From NCBI GenBank assembly GCA_000004985.1, contig GG738857.1: DNA of 64,000 bases. One strand, written 5' to 3'. Under the pieces are notes generated by a model. That model worked only from the letters and a program-made list of their open reading frames with translations, was not told the origin of the DNA and made no database searches. This stretch comes from Naegleria gruberi (lineage: Eukaryota). This document shows, piece by piece, positions 1,940-57,568 of the stretch. Within the stretch, counting starts at the first letter, position 1. Every line of letters begins with the position of its first letter. Both the position numbers and the translations under genes were made by a program.

Positions 1940-4900
1940 ATGAAACACTTGTTGGATTTCGCGTATATGGGGAGGAAATTTTCACACGTTGATCACGATG
2001 GTCAATTAGTAACAAGGGAGTTTCGCAACTGTTTATTTATTCTAATGATTGCTGCTTGGATAACAATGTTGTGGTTGCCAGCACTTGCACATGGACAACA
2101 GTTAACAAAGACATTTTACATTGATTCGCTTCATGTTTCGAATACTAATTCATTCGAATGTGGAAATTCATCAAATCCATGCACTACAGTACAAGATGCT
2201 CTCAATTATTTTGCTTCGGATAGTTACATTCTAATTCAACACCAAATTTCCACCTCCAACACCTCCACACTCACCATTCAATTAACTTTCTTCATGTTAA
2301 ATGATGAACACAATTTTTGTGGTTACAATTTAAACACAACATTTAATGATAATATTGATTATGAATTGAGTTTTATTGGAAATGGGGTTTCTACATTGAC
2401 ATGTACGAAAGGGTATGGAGAGTTGAATTTCATTGAACCTCGTTTGGATATTTCAAAAGTGTTGTTTAGTCAACTTTCGTTGATTGGAGTGGTGTTTAAT
2501 TCATGTTCTTCTATTTCATTGACAGTTGTTAATTGTTTGATAACAGATGGTGGATTTATGACTTATTATCAACTCCAAGAATGTCCCAATTACGTTGCTT
2601 CGAACAGAACTATTCGAAACTTGTACCTTTCTAATATTTCCACATGGAATGGTGTTTTTTTAATTGGAAATGCAAAGAATGGGCTTATAGAGAATATTAG
2701 ATGTGATGGAGTTAGTGCCCTCTCATTCAATAATATGGAATCCATTCAACTTTCGAATGTTCAAATGCCTGGTGATGGATTATTCTCTTCTAACAATGTA
2801 AACTCTATCAGTTTCAAGAATTTCATTTCTACTGGACCTACATTCAACATCCACATTAGAGAATTTAAATCATTCACAATGGAAAGTAGTTCCTTTCAAA
2901 ACTATAAGTATTTTCAGTCAGCTGTCAACATTGACAGAGGAGAAAGTGCCAAAATTATTGATACAACAGTTCAATATTCCAGTCAATGGCTTTCTGCTAA
3001 AACTGTTAAGAAAATTGTCATTTCCAATTTAAGATTTTTGAATAATTATGTATTGGATGTTAGAACTTCCTTTTTAAGTCCAATTTTCATTTATAGTTGT
3101 GATAGTATTAAGATTGAGAATTCTTATTTTGATGGAAATTTTGGAACTAGATCTGGTCCAGTATTTATTGATGATTATTTGAATGTTGAAGTTTCGAATA
3201 ATACATTCATGAATGGTCGATCACTTGCTTCAGGTGGTGCCCTACATTTGGATAATTATCAAGCAGAATCATTATTAGAAAAGGCGACTGTTTTGATTAA
3301 GGATAATTTATTCCTTAATAACACATGTGAAAGAGTTGGTGGAGCTGTTTGCATTAATACTGTGGTCAATTGTGTTGTTACAGGAAACAAATTTATTAGA
3401 AATCAAGCAGTGGTCACTGGAGGTGCTCTTACTATTGCTGAGCATTGTAGAGATTGCCTTATTGAATCATACTTTGAAGAAAACAAGTCAATTGGAAATT
3501 ATTTAGAATTGGATTCGAATATTGTTTTTTCACAACAACTTTGGAATCGAATTATTGGAACTGGAGGTGCTCTTGCCATTTTCACAGAACCAAGATTTTC
3601 ATTTAGGATTTATGGATCTGTATTTGTGAGAAATTATGCAGGAAAAGGAGGAGCAATCCTAATGGGACTCAATTTACCAATTTCTCTCTCACAAAAAACT
3701 CCAACTTTTGTGCAAGATTGTAAATTTGAGGGAAATTTTGCAACCAAAACTGGAAATGATATTTATGCTGTGAATTTTCAAGCTCCTTTATCATATGTTA
3801 GAACTTTTATTAATCAAACAGAGGGAAATGAATATAGTTTCTCATCTAGTCCCGCCATTTTTAGAATTGTAAAGGTTAGCACTAACAAAGTTTATCCTGG
3901 TCAACCGATTGATATTGCATTCTATGTGGAGAATATATTTGGAAGGGAGATTGATATTGCATCTCAATATGTGGTTATTGATCAATTTCCTAACATGCTT
4001 CCTTTTTTGAATTATTCAAATGTTGACAGAAAGTCACTTGTCTTGACTCCTTATTCATTAACTACTGAAATGCCAATTGTTTCTCAATTTAATTTCTCAG
4101 TTTATTCAGAAGATCAAAAATTTTCAGCTAGTTTCCAATTCGAAATGTTTCCATGCCCAAAAAAGTTTATTCTACAAAAGAATGTTGCCTATTCTAATCT
4201 GGTCTATCAATGTGTGAGTGATAATAGTTTAGATCTTTCACTAGTTCTTGGACTGACTATTCCAATTGGAATTTTATTCTTAATTGTAGGAGCAATTTTG
4301 GGAGGATTGTCAGTTTATGCTATTCGATTCACACTTACACAAATTTCAATTCTCAAGACGAAACAAAGAGCTGAGAAGAGTCTTGAACAGAGAATTATAG
4401 ACAAGAAGATCATTTTCAATTCAGATCCTTCATCTGGTACCACTCACTATTCGAAATATAGTACAAATAGTGACCTTTCGGTTCCATTAATCGAAAATGG
4501 TAGCGCAGAAAAGAGTATGGCCACTCCATCCTTTGTCATTCCAATCGAAAGCATTGATATTATCAAAAAGTTAGCAGAAGGTGGATTAGGCATAATTTAT
4601 CTTGGTAAATTATGGAAGAAAATTGATGTTGCCATCAAATTACTGAAATCAAACGATCAAGATGAAGAATTTGAACAGGAAGTTTCCCTTCTAAGTTCAT
4701 TAAGACATGATAATATTGTTACATTTTATGGTATTTGTATGTCAGATGATGCCAAGTATATGATTACAGAGTTTGTTGAAAAGGGATCATTGGATAAAGC
4801 TCTGTACAAGTCAAGGATTGGAGAGGTGTCAATGTCAATTCAAAAGAAAATGTCAATATTGATAGCGACAGCAAGAGGAATTGAATATCTTCATGGATTA

Positions 4901-5557
4901 ACACCAACAGTTGTTCATCGTGATTTGGTATGTAATATTAGTTTCACAATTTCGCAATTAACATTGTTTTTTCTCTATTGGAAGAAACCTGGTAATATCC
5001 TATTGGAAGAAAAGAATCAAGCAAAGATTTGTGATTTTGGTATTTCAAGAACTGTGTCCAATGCAACTGTCCAACAAACAGCCATGACCACTAATTTAGG
5101 TACCTTAATCTATTGTCCAAATGAAGTAATTGAAGGACCTACTTTGACTAATAAGGCAAGCAAACAAACTGCCACCAAAATTGATATCTTTAGTTTCTCC
5201 GTAATTATGTGGGAAGTTTTCTTTGAAATTATTCCTTATTCACCATCGGTAGGAAAATTAACTCCACTATTTCAGTTATCAAAAGAGGAAAATGAAATGT
5301 TGAGTATGAATTCGTTTAATATTCCTTATTTTGTGGTGAAGGGAATGAGACCATTGATTCCATTCAGAACAGATGAGCAGATTAGAGAGTGGATTGAAAG
5401 ATACATGCCTGAACAGATTCACAATTCGAATATTGTTCAATTTGTAAATCGATTCTTTGCATTGGTTCAACAAGGTTGGTCAACTGATGCAACCAAGAGA
5501 CCAAATATTACAACTGTATTACAAGAACTTGAAGAACTGAATAATCTGATCAGATAG
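1940..5557 (+). CDS. Receptor-like serine/threonine (TKL-type) protein kinase with a signal peptide, an ectodomain of parallel beta-helix (Pmp-like FxxN / GGA[ILV]) repeats, one transmembrane helix and a cytoplasmic kinase domain. It has one in-frame 57-nt intron at 4928-4984.
   Basis: N-terminal hydrophobic signal LFILMIAAWITMLWLPALAHG. Repeated motifs FMNGRSLASGGALHLDN, FLNNTCERVGGAVCINT, FIRNQAVVTGGALTIAE and FVRNYAGKGGAILMG. TM segment LVLGLTIPIGILFLIVGAILGGLSVYAI. Kinase motifs GGLGIIYLGK, VAIKLL, HRDL|KPGNILL (split by the intron GTATGT...GGAAG) and CDFGISR. Confidence 0.8.
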   Translation: MKHLLDFAYMGRKFSHVDHDGQLVTREFRNCLFILMIAAWITMLWLPALAHGQQLTKTFYIDSLHVSNTNSFECGNSSNPCTTVQDALNYFASDSYILIQHQISTSNTSTLTIQLTFFMLNDEHNFCGYNLNTTFNDNIDYELSFIGNGVSTLTCTKGYGELNFIEPRLDISKVLFSQLSLIGVVFNSCSSISLTVVNCLITDGGFMTYYQLQECPNYVASNRTIRNLYLSNISTWNGVFLIGNAKNGLIENIRCDGVSALSFNNMESIQLSNVQMPGDGLFSSNNVNSISFKNFISTGPTFNIHIREFKSFTMESSSFQNYKYFQSAVNIDRGESAKIIDTTVQYSSQWLSAKTVKKIVISNLRFLNNYVLDVRTSFLSPIFIYSCDSIKIENSYFDGNFGTRSGPVFIDDYLNVEVSNNTFMNGRSLASGGALHLDNYQAESLLEKATVLIKDNLFLNNTCERVGGAVCINTVVNCVVTGNKFIRNQAVVTGGALTIAEHCRDCLIESYFEENKSIGNYLELDSNIVFSQQLWNRIIGTGGALAIFTEPRFSFRIYGSVFVRNYAGKGGAILMGLNLPISLSQKTPTFVQDCKFEGNFATKTGNDIYAVNFQAPLSYVRTFINQTEGNEYSFSSSPAIFRIVKVSTNKVYPGQPIDIAFYVENIFGREIDIASQYVVIDQFPNMLPFLNYSNVDRKSLVLTPYSLTTEMPIVSQFNFSVYSEDQKFSASFQFEMFPCPKKFILQKNVAYSNLVYQCVSDNSLDLSLVLGLTIPIGILFLIVGAILGGLSVYAIRFTLTQISILKTKQRAEKSLEQRIIDKKIIFNSDPSSGTTHYSKYSTNSDLSVPLIENGSAEKSMATPSFVIPIESIDIIKKLAEGGLGIIYLGKLWKKIDVAIKLLKSNDQDEEFEQEVSLLSSLRHDNIVTFYGICMSDDAKYMITEFVEKGSLDKALYKSRIGEVSMSIQKKMSILIATARGIEYLHGLTPTVVHRDLVCNISFTISQLTLFFLYWKKPGNILLEEKNQAKICDFGISRTVSNATVQQTAMTTNLGTLIYCPNEVIEGPTLTNKASKQTATKIDIFSFSVIMWEVFFEIIPYSPSVGKLTPLFQLSKEENEMLSMNSFNIPYFVVKGMRPLIPFRTDEQIREWIERYMPEQIHNSNIVQFVNRFFALVQQGWSTDATKRPNITTVLQELEELNNLIR

Positions 5558-9079: not shown

Positions 9080-11293
9080 ATGAGTCTCCCAAATAACAAC
9101 ACTATTAGTAGCAATTGGCAATTACCTCTTGCTTGGAAGCAACAATTTGCTCTTCCATTCGTTCAAGCTTTGGAAGCACAAGAAAAGGAAAGTCCAGACA
9201 GTGATATTTTGAATAATCCATCACTCACCGAACAACAAAAACAACAACAAATTTCTGCTCGTAACATTGATAGAAAGCAACAAAAGAGACTGAAAGCAAT
9301 CTTTAATAGATTTGCTTCATCGAAGGATACTTTTGGTGAACCAATAATGACACCAGAAGATTTTGTCAAATCAATCACACAAAGAAACATTCCTTTCACT
9401 CAAGAAGAAGTGCAACAACAACAAAAGCAAACAATGACCTCAAGTAACTTGGATTTATTGTTTAAAGCAGCAGATTCTGGTATGTCTGGTAAAATTACCT
9501 TCCCAGAATACTTGTTCCTCTTCAAAATGCTCACAACACCTGAAAGTGAATTCCATCTCTTATTTAAAATGTTTGATTTGAACAAGGATGGTGCTATCAG
9601 TAAGGATGAATTCAAGAAGGCAATGAAATTGAGTAATCAAAGAGGTATTGACTTTGATTTCGATTGTGACTTAATGCACAGATTCTTTGGTCGTGATGGT
9701 ACTGGTTCTCTGAGTTTTAATCAATTCTCACAATTCATGAAATTAATGAATGAAGAACTCAGAAGACAAGAATTCCAAAAACTTGATGCCACAGGAAAGG
9801 GTTTCATTTCCGGTTCTCAATTTGCCACTCTCATTACTCAATATTCAATTAATCTTCCACAAAGAGTTAAGGAAAATATTGGTAAAATCCCAGAATCAAC
9901 AAAGATTTCATATGCCGAATTTGATGCTTACAATAGAGTTATTAGTAATTTGAACTCTATTGCTCAATCCATTAGAGGTTTGGGTAACAGAGAAGGTGGT
10001 ATGATCACCAAGGAATCATTTTCCACTGCTGCTAGACGTGTGACAGGTATTGTCCTCAGCCCAATGGAAATTGATATTATTTTCAACATGTTTGCCACTA
10101 AGCCAGAAGAAGGAGTTTTATATAAGCAAGATTATGAAGAATTTATTCGTGTTATGGATGAAAACAATAATAGAAGACAACACATTTTGGATAGTTGGAG
10201 TAGAGATGAAGTGACACCAGATGGTATGACAGAAATGACTTTCGGAGAAAGATTTTTGAACGGAGTTGTTAAAATTGCCACAAAGACCTTGTATGGTGGT
10301 ATTTCAGGAGCTATTGGTGCTTTTGCTGTCTTCCCAATTGATATGGTCAAGACACGTATGCAAAATCAAAGAAAGCTTCTTGGTAATGCTGGAACTCCTG
10401 CTCCAAATCAAATCATTTATAAGAACAGTATTGATTGTTTTAGACAAATCTATCACTATGAAGGTATTAAGGGTTTCTATAGAGGTTTAATTCCACAATT
10501 GATTGGTGTCTCACCAGAAAAGGCCATCAAGTTGGCAACCAATGATACATTGCGTGATTTGTTCGGAAAGGAAGGTGATGAAATCTATTTCCCATTGGAA
10601 GTTTTGGCTGGTTGTGGTGCTGGTGCTTCTCAAGTTGTTTTCACTAACCCAATTGAAATTGTCAAGATTAGATTGCAAGTTCAAGGAGAATTGGCCAGAA
10701 CTGAAGGAATTGCTCCAAAAGGTGCCATTCAAATCTGTAAAGAATTAGGTTTAAAGGGTTTATATAAGGGTGCTTCTGCCTGTTTTGCTCGTGATATCCC
10801 ATTCTCTGGTATTTACTTCCCACTTTATGCCTTCTTGAAGGAAGAATTCAGAAAGGAAGGTGAAACTGCAACAAGTGGTGGCAATTTGTTTATTGCTGGT
10901 TCAATTGCTGGTGGTGTTTCTGCTGCTTCAGTAACTCCTTTCGATGTCATTAAGACCAGATTACAAGTTGAAGCTAGAGCTGGTCAAACTCAATATAGAG
11001 GTATTGCTCACTGTGCCAAGACAATCATGAAGGAAGAAGGTCCAACAGCTTTCTTCAAGGGTACTGTCCCAAGAGTTTTAAGAAGCAGTCCACAATTTGG
11101 TGTGACATTGCTTGCTTATGAAGCTCTCCATCGTTTTGTCAATGAAAAACATTCTAAACAAGAAGAAAAGGAACATCATAAGAGTTTGCCAGCTTCTGTT
11201 CCTGTTGACGAACAAGACTTGGAAAGTTTGAGACAACTCTTCTACATGAGAACACAAGGTATTTCTTCAATTCTTGGAAATGAAAAGAAGTAA
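9080..11293 (+). CDS. Calcium-binding mitochondrial carrier of the Aralar (aspartate/glutamate carrier) type, single exon
   Basis: The N-terminal half carries EF-hand loops (DLNKDGAISKDEF, DGTGSLSFNQF, DATGKGFISGSQF). The C-terminal half has three mitochondrial-carrier repeats with PIDMVKTRMQ, PIEIVKIRLQ and PFDVIKTRLQ signatures. Confidence 0.85.
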   Translation: MSLPNNNTISSNWQLPLAWKQQFALPFVQALEAQEKESPDSDILNNPSLTEQQKQQQISARNIDRKQQKRLKAIFNRFASSKDTFGEPIMTPEDFVKSITQRNIPFTQEEVQQQQKQTMTSSNLDLLFKAADSGMSGKITFPEYLFLFKMLTTPESEFHLLFKMFDLNKDGAISKDEFKKAMKLSNQRGIDFDFDCDLMHRFFGRDGTGSLSFNQFSQFMKLMNEELRRQEFQKLDATGKGFISGSQFATLITQYSINLPQRVKENIGKIPESTKISYAEFDAYNRVISNLNSIAQSIRGLGNREGGMITKESFSTAARRVTGIVLSPMEIDIIFNMFATKPEEGVLYKQDYEEFIRVMDENNNRRQHILDSWSRDEVTPDGMTEMTFGERFLNGVVKIATKTLYGGISGAIGAFAVFPIDMVKTRMQNQRKLLGNAGTPAPNQIIYKNSIDCFRQIYHYEGIKGFYRGLIPQLIGVSPEKAIKLATNDTLRDLFGKEGDEIYFPLEVLAGCGAGASQVVFTNPIEIVKIRLQVQGELARTEGIAPKGAIQICKELGLKGLYKGASACFARDIPFSGIYFPLYAFLKEEFRKEGETATSGGNLFIAGSIAGGVSAASVTPFDVIKTRLQVEARAGQTQYRGIAHCAKTIMKEEGPTAFFKGTVPRVLRSSPQFGVTLLAYEALHRFVNEKHSKQEEKEHHKSLPASVPVDEQDLESLRQLFYMRTQGISSILGNEKK

Positions 11294-12930: not shown

Positions 12931-12990
12931 TTGATTCCATTGTTGATCAATGATGATATTAGGGTGGATGTTGTTTGTTCAATTTTTTAA

Positions 12991-13044: not shown

Positions 13045-13124
13045 TGTTGAACTACAGTTTTTGATTCAATCAGTAGGGGGAAGACGTCCCTTATAATAAT
13101 ATTTAATTTTTCTTTGGTTCATAT

Positions 13125-13978
13125 TAGACTTCCGGAAAAAGTTTTGCTAAAAGTCGACTTTTTTAAGGTACTTTCACGCTAATTTGCAAAAAGGCGCCTA
13201 AAAGGTGCCTAAAAGGTGCCTTTTTTACCTAAAAACTACTTGAAACACATCCAAAGTTTGTTCAAGAAAATCTTGAGCAACTTTCAAACTGTTTTCAAAC
13301 AATTCCTCAAGAATGATTAATTACTTCTCAACCAAATTCTCAAAACGTTCAAGTATTTGCTGAAAAAACCCCAAGGGCCTTCAAACTTCTGAACACTCTC
13401 TTTCTTAACTATATCCTTTTCCAAAAAATCCACCAATTCCTTAAGAGATCCAAGGTTTTTGAATGTCACCATCTCGGGTCACTGTAGTTTTGATGGATTT
13501 TTTTACATCAATCACGAAATCTTTCGAAAGCTCTGGTCTTTTGGGCTCCTCAACTTTTCTTGGCATGATGATTGTTTTCTTTTTGATAAGGTTCAGGTTT
13601 TTTCTCTTTCTGGGTGGAGTGATGTTCAAATCAGATCTCTTCCTCTTCTGGATTTTTTCTTGTTTCACACTTTTTTCTTGTTCCTGTTTCATGCTTAATT
13701 CAGAATATGGTGTTTCATTAAGATTTTCTTCCACTTCCTCAACATCTTCCGTTCCATCAACAATAGAATCAGCAAGATTAGGGAACCTTTCAACTTCAGC
13801 AAATGCAGTAAAGAAAAGGTTGACATCAGGAAAAAGAAAGCTTCAATAAATGTGCAGGAAAGGTTTAAACATTTCTTGAATTATGCTCAAACAAATTTCA
13901 AAAATTGCTCAAACATTTTTCAAACCACTTTTTTAAAAAGGCGCCTTTTTATTTCTTTTTGACTTTTCCGGAAGTCTA
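13125..13978. mobile_element. Candidate non-autonomous DNA transposon or foldback element bounded by approximately 16-bp terminal inverted repeats TAGACTTCCGGAAAA(A)GT
   Basis: Left end 13125-13146 is tagacttccggaaaaagttttg. Right end 13961-13978 is gacttttccggaagtcta, its reverse complement with one indel. Subterminal GC-rich palindromes AAAAAGGCGCCT occur at 13189-13222, where the motif is reiterated three times, and once at 13937-13950. Subterminal inverted tracts of the ttgagcaa..tttcaaa type are also present. Confidence 0.45.
13441..13734 (-). CDS. Lysine-rich basic ORF inside the inverted-repeat element; coding status uncertain
   Basis: ORF of 97 aa rich in K/R/E (KRKRSDLNITPPRKRKNLNLIKKK). 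A further 42 stop-free codons follow in the +1 frame (ELVDFLEKDIVKKESVQKFEGPWGFF...). No recognisable domain. Confidence 0.3.
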   Translation of the reverse strand: MEENLNETPYSELSMKQEQEKSVKQEKIQKRKRSDLNITPPRKRKNLNLIKKKTIIMPRKVEEPKRPELSKDFVIDVKKSIKTTVTRDGDIQKPWIS

Positions 13979-14074
13979 TTGAAACTCTTGCTTTGTTTAG
14001 GTTTCCCATAATTTTATATTTTTATTTTTATTGGAAATAAATTTTTTAATATGGAAAATCAGGTCAAGTGTTTA

Positions 14075-15415
14075 TTAAGGATCACCACTTGTAACGGCAC
14101 ATCCAAAAAATTCATGTTTTCCAATCAATTGCTTTGGAATTCCCCATTCCCATAAATATTGATCTCCAGATCTTAATTCTTGCTCTCCAGAATAAATGAC
14201 AAGTAAATTTGATTGAGATGAATAGTCAACTGGATCATCATTTACATCCTCATCTATTATTTCTATATCAGAATCAAAATCCATAGAACTAAACAAGCTA
14301 AAAAAGGTAAACTTGTCATCGAATGGTGTTGAAAATTCTTCAATTTTCAAAGTATTTGGAACTTTTCCTCTTTCAGTCATTCTAGGTTGGTGAGGAACTG
14401 AATGGAATTTCATTTTGGCAGCATTGCAATAGGTACGATTTCCTTCTTGTCTCTCCAATCCACCCATTTCTTTAATTTGATTTTCTGTTATGTAAAGAAC
14501 TGGTTGTGAACTAGATCTCTTTGGTGCACAATAGGACCCATTACCTCCTCCATTAGGATCACAAAAGAAATAGAGCATTCCATTATCTTTAGGAAGAAGT
14601 GATCCAGTTCTATCATAATAAGACAAGTGTTTGATGTTGATTTGACAACCAAACATCCATTTCTTATCAAAAAGTGTTGGCCATTGATAGTTTTTTGGTA
14701 AATCAGGCCATCCACCAATTTTTGATTCTCCAACTGCAATTAAATCGTCTCCATTTCCAATAGAGTATCCAGAAGTTACTGATTCTAATGGAACTTTCCA
14801 ATAAAGTGATTCAGGTGTTACAACTTCCTTTTCTTCTTCGGTTTCTTCTTCTTCTTCTTCATACTCCTCATCTATATCATTTTTAATTATCTTAAACTTT
14901 GGATGTAACTTTTCACAATACCCTTGAGTAATTGACTCGACAGAAAAGGTCAAGTTTTGATAATCCTTAGCATTTTCACTAAATGCCTTTAAAATATTGA
15001 CATGTCCTTTTTGTCTGCATTCGTGAACTGTCGAATACTTTCCATAGGCAATTTTACAGATGAAATATTCTTTCCAGAATGCGTTTTCACTTGGAAAAGT
15101 TTCCAATAAACATTCTGGTACATCAATTGGCAGAAAGTTCAATCTATTCTTGACAACATCCTTCCAATTTACTTGATTATCAATCATAGACTTCCATCCC
15201 TTGCATACACGTCTCATCTTTATCAATTCACATCCCTCATTAAATATGAACAATTCACCAACCAATACTTCTGGTGGAATATCTTGGAGGAGTTGTCTTG
15301 TTGATTCTTTCATCTTTTTGTTTGGATTTTCAGTACTACCAACCAGTGTGCTGTTATTGACAGATCGTTTGGACATTTTTTTTGTGGTGTTATCAGTTTT
15401 GGCGCAGAAAATCAA
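14075..15415 (-). CDS. F-box-like domain protein with an acidic linker; the C-terminal region may be DUF1963-like (tentative)
   Basis: LLQDIPPEVLVGELFIFNEGCELIKMRRVCKGWKSMI resembles an F-box. There is an EEYEEEEEETEEEKE acidic tract. The C-terminal GWPDLP...LYFFCDPNGG block resembles DUF1963. Confidence 0.55.
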   Translation of the reverse strand: MIFCAKTDNTTKKMSKRSVNNSTLVGSTENPNKKMKESTRQLLQDIPPEVLVGELFIFNEGCELIKMRRVCKGWKSMIDNQVNWKDVVKNRLNFLPIDVPECLLETFPSENAFWKEYFICKIAYGKYSTVHECRQKGHVNILKAFSENAKDYQNLTFSVESITQGYCEKLHPKFKIIKNDIDEEYEEEEEETEEEKEVVTPESLYWKVPLESVTSGYSIGNGDDLIAVGESKIGGWPDLPKNYQWPTLFDKKWMFGCQINIKHLSYYDRTGSLLPKDNGMLYFFCDPNGGGNGSYCAPKRSSSQPVLYITENQIKEMGGLERQEGNRTYCNAAKMKFHSVPHQPRMTERGKVPNTLKIEEFSTPFDDKFTFFSLFSSMDFDSDIEIIDEDVNDDPVDYSSQSNLLVIYSGEQELRSGDQYLWEWGIPKQLIGKHEFFGCAVTSGDP

Positions 15416-16193: not shown

Positions 16194-16267
16194 TACCGAC
16201 AATGGGGCTCGAACCCACGACCCCAGGATTAGAAGTCCTGTGCTCTATCCAACTGAGCTATGACGGC
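16194..16267 (-). tRNA. tRNA-Arg (anticodon UCU), copy 1
   Basis: Minus-strand sequence GCCGTCATAGCTCAGTTGGATAGAGCACAGGACTTCTAATCCTGGGGTCGTGGGTTCGAGCCCCATTGTCGGTA. It has a D-arm GCTC/GAGC, the anticodon loop CTTCTAA with U33 and A37, and the T-loop GGTTCGAGCC. It is followed immediately by a T6 run, an RNA polymerase III terminator. The acceptor stem has one T-T mismatch. Confidence 0.88.
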
Positions 16268-53907: not shown

Positions 53908-55620
53908 GTGAATGATACAGAATACACCAAGCAGGTAATTAAGGAGNNNNNNNNNNNNNNNNNNNNNNNNNNNNNNNNNNNNNNNNNNNNNNNNNNTGCA
54001 GATCATCAACAACACATGCAACATTATTTGGACAATTCCGGTGCTGGTCATCATTCCATGAATGTTGGTGGTCAATCCAACAATACAATTTCCTCCACTG
54101 CAAGTCATTATGTATTTGGTGGTGGAAGTAGTCAAGCTACTTCTACACTTCAACCTCTTCCAAATACCTCATCCTTGTTGAGTGGTGCAAGTGGAAACCA
54201 GCATGTTGTAGGAAACAATCAACATACAAATAATGGTCAATCTTCTACAACCTCAATACAAATACAATTACAGCAACTACAACAATATCAACAACAAAGA
54301 TATGGTACTAATAATACAACTCAACAATTGCCTTCCATGAATGCCTACCCATCTCAGCAAAATCAAGAAGATGACCAGTTGGCTGATTGGATGAATGAAC
54401 AACCTTCTAGAATGTTGCAACAACAAGAACTTCCTCCATTTGAGAATGATTTTGGATTTGATGGATGGTTCCAATCTGAGGAGAATCTTAATAATGTTCT
54501 ATCTCAACAATTGACTAATGGTTACTTCCAGAACTCAATGATGGGTAACTTGAACAACCAAGGTGCACAAGATATGGACAACTACCAATCAAGACAAATG
54601 GGACTCGGTTCCAACTTTAACCTTAATTCTGTGTCAGGTAATTTAATGCAAAATGGTCAACCAAATTTTGTAATGGACGATCCAAACTTTAATGTCTGGG
54701 GTGATGCTGGAGATTTAGATTTGGATGAAGGATTACTGAACAAACACCAAGGTAATCCACTCTTTGGCGGTACTCAACTCTTTACCAATCATACAATGTC
54801 GACAACTGAATCTAAGGGCGTGACTAGTATAACAGCATTGGCAAATAGTTTGAATTTCAGTGAATCTCCTCAAATGAAAAAGACAAGGAAATCGAAGAAG
54901 ACCAACAACTTAACAGAACACTATCAACAAAATGGCTTTGATGAATCTTATGAACAAAACATTTTAGATATGGACAATGAAAGCTTTAAGAATTATGTTA
55001 ACGGTTTGTATGGTGAAAAGGGAAAGAAGAAGAATAAGACTCAAATTCCATTCAATGAAGAAGACTTTTCAAAACTACTCCTAGCCAAGGAAAGAATTAC
55101 AGAACTGTACCACCAATGCCAGCAGGACAACATGAGTCTAGTCAACTCAGTGATGAGTCAATACACACCATCCATGGAGATGGATGATTCTTTAAGTAAC
55201 GAAATGAAAGAACTCTATGCCAAGGTTAACGCCAAACTGGACTATAAGAACACTGAGAATAAGAACCACTGTGAACAAGTGCTCAAGAAACTCATCTATG
55301 AATGGGTTGACATGGTTAAGGCTCAAAAAACAGTGGTCAGTTCAGACAAGACTAGTAATGATTCTTCCAACAAATCGAGCAAAAAATCAAAGAGTGCCAA
55401 CAGAAGACTTCCTAATGAAGCTAAGAAAGTTTTAGAAAATTGGTTCTTGGAACACTACAAGCATCCTTACCCAACCAATGAAGAAAAACAATGGCTAAGT
55501 GATCAAACTCAACTCAACCTCACTCAAATCAATAACTGGTTTATTAACAAGAGAGGGCGATCTCTCAAATTGGTGAAGGAAAAATTAAGGACTGAAACTG
55601 ATGATGGAGAAGAAGAATAA
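53908..55620 (+). CDS. TALE-class homeobox protein (MEIS/KNOX/PBX-like homeodomain at the C-terminus). The CDS is interrupted by an assembly gap.
   Basis: Homeodomain RRLPNEAKKVLENWFLEHYKHPYPTNEEKQWLSDQTQLNLTQINNWFINKRGR, with the three-residue loop extension HPYP and the WFIN motif. The N-terminal part is Q/N-rich. The start codon is uncertain because of the N-run and a possible GTAATT donor at 53927. Confidence 0.7.
   Translation: MNDTEYTKQVIKEXXXXXXXXXXXXXXXXXADHQQHMQHYLDNSGAGHHSMNVGGQSNNTISSTASHYVFGGGSSQATSTLQPLPNTSSLLSGASGNQHVVGNNQHTNNGQSSTTSIQIQLQQLQQYQQQRYGTNNTTQQLPSMNAYPSQQNQEDDQLADWMNEQPSRMLQQQELPPFENDFGFDGWFQSEENLNNVLSQQLTNGYFQNSMMGNLNNQGAQDMDNYQSRQMGLGSNFNLNSVSGNLMQNGQPNFVMDDPNFNVWGDAGDLDLDEGLLNKHQGNPLFGGTQLFTNHTMSTTESKGVTSITALANSLNFSESPQMKKTRKSKKTNNLTEHYQQNGFDESYEQNILDMDNESFKNYVNGLYGEKGKKKNKTQIPFNEEDFSKLLLAKERITELYHQCQQDNMSLVNSVMSQYTPSMEMDDSLSNEMKELYAKVNAKLDYKNTENKNHCEQVLKKLIYEWVDMVKAQKTVVSSDKTSNDSSNKSSKKSKSANRRLPNEAKKVLENWFLEHYKHPYPTNEEKQWLSDQTQLNLTQINNWFINKRGRSLKLVKEKLRTETDDGEEE
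53947..53996. other. Assembly gap (run of 50 N)
   Basis: A literal N-run in the sequence. Confidence 0.99.
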
Positions 55621-57494: not shown

Positions 57495-57568
57495 TACCGA
57501 CAATGGGGCTCGAACCCACGACCCCAGGATTAGAAGTCCTGTGCTCTATCCAACTGAGCTATGACGGC
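57495..57568 (-). tRNA. tRNA-Arg (anticodon UCU), copy 2
   Basis: The 74-nt sequence is identical to copy 1 and is followed by T6 (plus strand cagataccgacaatggggctcgaaccc...). The flanking sequences are unrelated to those of copy 1. Confidence 0.88.

Follow-up and report, generated by a model that had tools for sequence, protein, structure and literature searches.

An 854-bp unit bounded by terminal inverted repeats at two loci of Naegleria gruberi, a probable low-copy, non-autonomous DNA transposon

Non-autonomous class II transposons with terminal inverted repeats (TIRs) are exemplified by Ds of the Ac/Ds system, which is an internally deleted derivative. Elements of this kind carry short TIRs and phased subterminal repeats, possess no transposase but retain a decayed remnant of an internal coding region, and lie between genes, near gene ends, at several loci with repeat-bounded edges. 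The hAT group is characterized by an 8-bp target-site duplication. The Stowaway elements of the Tc1/mariner group are sub-kilobase units with TA at both ends in an AT-rich context, and miniature inverted-repeat transposable elements (MITEs) in general are typically shorter than about 800 bp, non-coding and numerous in the genome. Foldback elements have inverted ends with short tandem subrepeats, and their long arms make up most of the element and form a stable long hairpin.

Here we report the analysis of an 854-bp unit within a 64,000-nt stretch of Naegleria gruberi DNA, which is referred to below as the window. The unit shares with Ds-like elements the short TIRs, the phased subterminal repeats, the lack of a transposase, what looks like a decayed internal coding remnant, the intergenic position near gene ends, and the occurrence at more than one locus with repeat-bounded edges, but it has no 8-bp duplication as found in hAT. 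In common with Stowaway and Tc1/mariner, it has TA at both ends when GAC...GTC is taken as the element, the AT-rich context TAT-TA-TTG, and a sub-kilobase size, whereas it is larger than typical MITEs and contains ORF remnants, and an ATT duplication fits it equally well. It resembles foldback elements in its inverted ends with short tandem subrepeats and differs from them in that its arms are degenerate and occupy a minor part of its length, and that its hairpin is no better than those of shuffled sequences. The unit is a TIR-bounded mobile or duplicated segment that is no foldback element and cannot demonstrably be counted among the MITEs. We consider that it is probably a low-copy, non-autonomous class II cut-and-paste TIR transposon of N. 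gruberi, 854 bp in length with TIRs of 15-18 nt.

Termini, arms and subterminal repeats

The features of the unit and its neighbours are collected in Table 1; the GC content of the window as a whole is about 33%. The outermost 15 nt form a perfect inverted repeat, in which TAGACTTCCGGAAAA (13125-13139) faces its exact reverse complement TTTTCCGGAAGTCTA (13964-13978), and with one A indel the terminal match reaches 18 nt on the left and 17 nt on the right (17 of 18 matching), in agreement with a first-pass annotation of this DNA, which had described the termini as reverse complements with a single indel. The terminal core TTCCGGAA occurs twice in the 64 kb, both times within the termini of the element, and apart from the 15-nt pair the window contains no perfect inverted repeat of at least 14 nt with a spacing of 50-1500 nt. 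A 15-nt inverted repeat also arises in 24% of composition-preserving block shuffles, so that the termini taken alone lie within chance and are weak evidence. The local alignment of the left arm with the reverse complement of the right arm has a score of 38, as compared with 18.3 ± 2.6 for shuffled sequences, of which 0 of 500 reach 38; thus, the inverted similarity runs about 100 nt past the termini. The arms consist of the 15 perfect nucleotides followed by about 100-180 nt of degenerate similarity, and they enclose a unique, non-self-complementary core of about 550 nt. The similarity of the arms past the 15-mer, together with the second locus described below, indicates that the element is real despite a terminal repeat of chance-level length.

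Table 1. Coordinates of the 854-bp unit, its candidate target-site duplications, internal features and flanking genes in the window
Feature	Position	Strand	Remarks
Whole element, 854 bp	13125-13978		Orientation arbitrary; internal ORFs on the minus strand
Left terminal inverted repeat, TAGACTTCCGGAAAAAGT	13125-13142	+	First 15 nt perfect
Right terminal inverted repeat, TAGACTTCCGGAAAAGT (minus-strand reading)	13962-13978	-	
Candidate TA target-site duplication, left copy	13125-13126		If the element is GAC...GTC
Candidate TA target-site duplication, right copy	13977-13978		If the element is GAC...GTC
Alternative ATT duplication	13123-13125 and 13978-13980		If the element is AGAC...GTCT
Left subterminal perfect palindrome, AAAAGTCGACTTTT, 14 nt	13149-13162		Offset 25-38 from the left end
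11-nt tandem array AAAAGG(C/T)GCCT, 3 units	13189-13221	+	
Left-arm YTCAA array (TTGAR on the minus strand)	13261-13352	+	Spacing mostly 11-12 nt
Second ORF, 51 aa, +1 frame	13317-13472	-	Overlaps the end of the first ORF
83-aa ORF from the first ATG	13441-13692	-	
97-aa ORF (GTG start)	13441-13734	-	
Stop-free stretch, 133 codons and stop	13441-13842	-	Acidic, then Lys/Arg-rich
Right-arm 11-nt tandem array, TCAAACATTTT, 3.5 units	13887-13925	+	
Right subterminal perfect palindrome, TAAAAAGGCGCCTTTTTA	13934-13951		Offset about 28-45 from the right end
ARH gene	Start codon at 12940	-	First exon, then GTATGT intron
F-box/DUF1963 gene	14075-15376	-	Stop codon at 14075

GC palindromes with A/T flanks sit just inside both ends. 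On the left this is AAAAGTCGACTTTT, which was missing from the first-pass annotation, and on the right AAAAAGGCGCCTTTTT at 13935-13950, which is self-complementary over 13934-13951 as (T)AAAAAGGCGCCTTTTT(A); the two are found at matching offsets from their respective element ends. The annotation had placed a GC palindrome near both ends and had described it as reiterated three times at 13189-13222. The copy near the right end stands, but what is repeated on the left is an 11-nt tandem unit in which GGCGCC occurs in the first unit only, the full palindrome itself being unrepeated. Similarly, the TTGAR/YTCAA tracts that had been noted as inverted inside both ends are real and phased at 11 nt, the right-arm array containing four TTGAR motifs at exact 11-nt spacing when read on the minus strand, but they are not purely inverted, as the arrays are in direct orientation between the arms.

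The subterminal palindromes and the helically phased 11-nt repeats are likely transposase binding sites. In the mechanism that we propose, a transposase encoded elsewhere would recognize the termini and the subterminal arrays and mobilize the element in trans, and insertion would proceed by cut-and-paste at TA (or ATT) in gene-proximal AT-rich spacers. The internal ORF would then be a relic, possibly from an internally deleted ancestor.

No further copy of the element was detected in the 64-kb window using blastn (word size 7) and motif searches. Scanning for the TIR gave 0 matches in viral contigs and 64 loci in JGI metagenomes, all of which are limited to at most 31 nt without extension and were therefore rejected as relatives and attributed to chance. 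One JGI metagenome contig (Ga0209553_1004115) contains the 18-nt TIR string three times at 123-nt spacing within 5145-5408; it appears to be a coding tandem repeat, and its likeness to the TIR was also assigned to chance.

A second locus and the internal reading frames

In the protein collection, the exact 83-aa ORF was encountered once; its source is a Logan contig of 1,701 nt (L004), which belongs to run ERR1078381, a low-coverage sample with short contigs. Contigs of this run are 99.7-99.8% identical to single-copy genes of the window, and the sample thus holds a very close N. gruberi strain. The first base of L004 corresponds to window position 13978, which is exactly the right terminus, and from there to 13122 the contig is 99.65% identical to the window, the differences being a single substitution and a single 2-nt indel. 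Past the element it continues for 842 nt without similarity to the window. At the break, the identity is 100% inward from the junction TAT/TAGAC and random outward, and the match stops within 3 nt of 13125. The foreign flank (889-1701 of L004, minus strand) encodes the C-terminus of eIF2D/ligatin with WH_eIF2D and SUI1 domains; a 38-aa stretch of it shows 100% identity to an N. gruberi protein whose scaffold measures 362,555 nt, the scaffold of the window being 573,072 nt long, and the eIF2D stop codon is located 32 nt from the element end. Since L004 matches the element and then enters an eIF2D gene of another scaffold, the 854-bp unit adjoins two unrelated host genes. The earlier proposal of a discrete unit that behaves as a DNA transposon is borne out by this comparison, in which a near-identical strain has the same 854 bp next to another host gene. 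The loci documented are two, the second from a single short contig with one flank visible. The presence of two copies with about 99.65% identity at different loci suggests recent DNA-transposon activity.

The Lys/Arg-rich 97-aa ORF on the minus strand and the stop-free codons in an adjacent frame, both listed by the first-pass annotation, were recovered. In-frame codon log-likelihoods per codon are 0.232 for the 133-codon stretch and 0.314 for the 51-aa ORF, as compared with 0.313 ± 0.111 for real gene segments of the window, at most -0.11 for off-frame and at most -0.01 for antisense readings; both ORFs score in the range of real genes in this test, which is partly confounded in that any stop-free stretch scores well. 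The joined ORF protein contains no Pfam domain, a word-indexed search returned no homologues of the ORFs, and a full HMMER search over 1.84 billion protein representatives retrieved only the identical Logan ORF. The single-sequence AlphaFold model (pLDDT 61.5, pTM 0.17) offers no usable fold, and neither an Rfam match nor a tRNA was found within the element. While the 83-aa ORF is identical in the window and L004 copies, the extra 2-nt indel of L004 shortens the second ORF to 41 aa, and neither copy retains an intact reading frame, the disruptions differing between them. The 51-aa ORF looks like a frameshifted continuation of a decayed coding region, and we infer that the Lys/Arg-rich frameshifted ORF is a decaying remnant without recognizable function, not a working gene. 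On the opposite strand, a 128-aa ORF with an ATG start (13463-13849, plus strand) has a lower codon score of 0.167, itself an instance of a stop-free stretch scoring well, and does not occur in the protein collection; its presence is probably a side effect of purine richness in the coding strand.

The host-like codon usage of the ORF and its acidic-then-basic layout, which is typical of nuclear proteins, are also what would be expected from a small orphan host gene for a nuclear Lys/Arg-rich protein. Such a gene, which the first-pass annotation had offered as an alternative in the form of a small nested gene, would have palindromic regulatory ends and would have been copied by segmental duplication or ectopic recombination rather than by transposition, its inverted termini being promoter or terminator motifs; the chance-level terminal repeat and the direct orientation of the TTGAR arrays in both arms agree with this. 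However, the common segment ends at one TIR terminus and the other coincides with the end of the contig, neither of which is predicted by segmental duplication. The frame broken in both copies in different ways, the lack of any homologue, other Naegleria proteomes included, and the lack of a confident fold also make a working gene the less likely interpretation, and we regard this alternative as unlikely.

The second locus comes from a low-coverage sample with short contigs, and no other copy was present in any collection searched. Combined with the frequency of 15-nt inverted repeats in shuffled sequences, this agrees with an artefact, namely a chance inverted repeat and a mis-joined (chimeric) Logan contig, in which case the element would be single-copy and immobile. 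Yet a mis-join in a k=31 graph needs about 30 common bases, so the eIF2D flank must bear at least the element terminus. By this inference, a k-mer join would need the terminal ~30 nt of the element at eIF2D and hence a second, at least partial, copy even if the contig were partly chimeric, and the end of the contig at the right terminus would represent the behaviour of a de Bruijn assembler at a repeat boundary with several continuations. Moreover, a start at exactly 13978 and a break within 3 nt of 13125 would have to coincide twice with independently noticed termini, which is very unlikely, and the similarity of the arms extends past the 15-mer. An artefact is, on these grounds, quite improbable.

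The phased repeats and palindromes resemble protein-binding arrays, each ORF has a coding-like score in its own frame, and the 83-aa ORF is preserved between the copies, features that would suit an autonomous or semi-autonomous cassette, in which the Lys/Arg-rich protein, perhaps made from the two ORFs via ribosomal frameshifting, binds the repeats and aids its own mobility or maintenance. But the protein comprises about 175 low-complexity residues, far from any known transposase, and has no catalytic domain, homologue or fold, and the second ORF is disrupted differently between the copies; we find such a cassette very improbable.

The foldback element of the first-pass annotation, whose function or mobility would depend on a long hairpin, can appeal to the inverted termini, the several palindromes and the extended arm similarity but is largely refuted and hardly tenable, because the single-stranded DNA fold of the whole element has an energy of -91.2 kcal/mol against -83.2 ± 6.1 kcal/mol for shuffled sequences (z = -1.3), the ~550-nt unique core between the arms is not self-complementary, and the arm repeats are partly direct.

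Target site and class membership

As in class II TIR elements generally, the unit, which we hold to be a probable non-autonomous TIR transposon, has inverted repeats at both ends and occurs at differing loci with homology ending at the termini. No transposase domain was detected in the element, nor in the 14 scanned ORFs of the 25 in the window with at least 250 aa, and the protein search with the internal ORF did not lead to a partner transposase either. Duplications of TA and of ATT both fit the window locus, TA being indistinguishable from a part of the TIR, and the second locus is one-sided; the target-site duplication could be TA or ATT, or be absent. The start of L004 at TAGAC, not AATAGAC, slightly favours TA and hints that the flanks diverge directly after it. 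At both loci, TAGAC is preceded by TAT, which may reflect an AT-rich target preference or chance. The element flanks contain no target duplication of 4, 8 or 9 bp.

On the TA evidence only, membership in the Tc1/mariner-Stowaway group is possible; the element termini (GACTTCCGG) appear unlike the usual terminal sequences of Stowaway and Tc1/mariner elements. Several other groups were considered and rejected. For hAT, the flanks GTTCATAT and TTGAAACT differ and do not form an 8-bp duplication, and TAGAC has a C at position 5, in contrast to the YARNG pattern. The PIF/Harbinger-Tourist group needs a 3-bp TWA (TAA/TTA) duplication, whereas ATT is the only 3-bp duplication that fits. Mutator elements have duplications of 9-11 bp, and there is no 9-bp duplication here; piggyBac would leave TTAA, which is also absent. 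Helitrons have no TIRs and end in 5'-TC...CTRR-3', whereas this element has TIRs and is without Helitron ends.

The first-pass annotation had further called the unit a MITE-like DNA transposon. The boundaries formed by TIRs and the presence at two loci uphold the transposon part of this description, but the term MITE applies only loosely, as two loci are documented, and the length of 854 bp and the 133-codon stretch and 51-aa ORF with coding-like codon usage, in what appears to be a decayed coding region, depart from the small non-coding elements of that name.

Neighbouring genes and implications

The element has the 3' end of an F-box/DUF1963 gene on one side and, on the other, the promoter of an ADP-ribosylglycohydrolase (ARH) gene. 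Both genes are on the minus strand and thus co-directional, contrary to the convergent and divergent arrangement that had been assigned to them. Once the element is subtracted, the distance from the F-box stop codon to the ARH start codon is 280 nt; ORF-free gaps in the window have a median of 337 nt. The ORFs scanned close to the element are ordinary host genes. A mitochondrial-carrier ORF of 737 aa (9080-11293) matches the N. gruberi protein XP_002679471.1 along 628 aa with 100% identity, which marks the window as nuclear DNA of N. gruberi NEG-M. Among the N. gruberi proteins in NCBI, none is identical to the product of the F-box/DUF1963 gene, the best of them reaching 44% identity, and its sole exact match is an ENA metagenome ORF; the gene appears to lack an annotation in the NEG-M gene set. 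Searches of Logan and ENA with the full-length F-box and ARH ORFs returned only two short ENA contigs, both of which end before the element.

In the search for an orthologous or empty site, the neighbourhood of the F-box/DUF1963 homologue in N. lovaniensis proved to be non-syntenic. About 5 kb from this homologue, and adjoining a SAD_SRA gene, the N. lovaniensis contig PYSW02000003.1 has a 495-aa ORF (3645-5132) with HTH_OrfB_IS605, OrfB_IS605 and Cas12f1-like TNB domains, which is TnpB/Fanzor-like and has no sequence relation to the element.

Transposable elements are reported to be nearly lacking in Naegleria genomes, with a content of 0.28% in N. gruberi (bioRxiv 10.64898/2026.06.24.734286). 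The searchable literature yielded no account of a TIR or MITE family in Naegleria, and nothing specific on Naegleria transposases or on PRJEB11402. The terminal and subterminal motifs would provide a handle for finding the transposase responsible for the mobility of the element, which is otherwise ordinary as a genomic feature and likely to affect the ARH promoter and the F-box 3' end only slightly. A bolder and rather doubtful proposal is that the element represents a recently active, uncatalogued TIR family in a transposon-poor genome, with insertion sites that differ among near-identical strains. If this were true, the TTCCGGAA-containing termini, the A/T-clamped GNCGNC palindromes and the 11-nt phased TTGAR arrays would mark the sites recognized by a heterolobosean transposase, possibly of a new lineage, and the element ends could be used as a Naegleria transgenesis vector.

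Elsewhere in the window, two tRNA-Arg(TCT) genes (16194-16267 and 57495-57568, both on the minus strand) are located 41 kb apart, and an assembly gap of 50 N at 53947-53996 falls within an ORF listed at 53908-55620. At the second locus, the NCBI model of N. gruberi eIF2D (425 aa) ends six residues past its divergence from the contig ORF and is without the SUI1 domain that the contig encodes, and truncation or mis-splicing has probably affected the 3' end of this reference model. This suspect 3' end coincides with the position of the element copy in the other strain.
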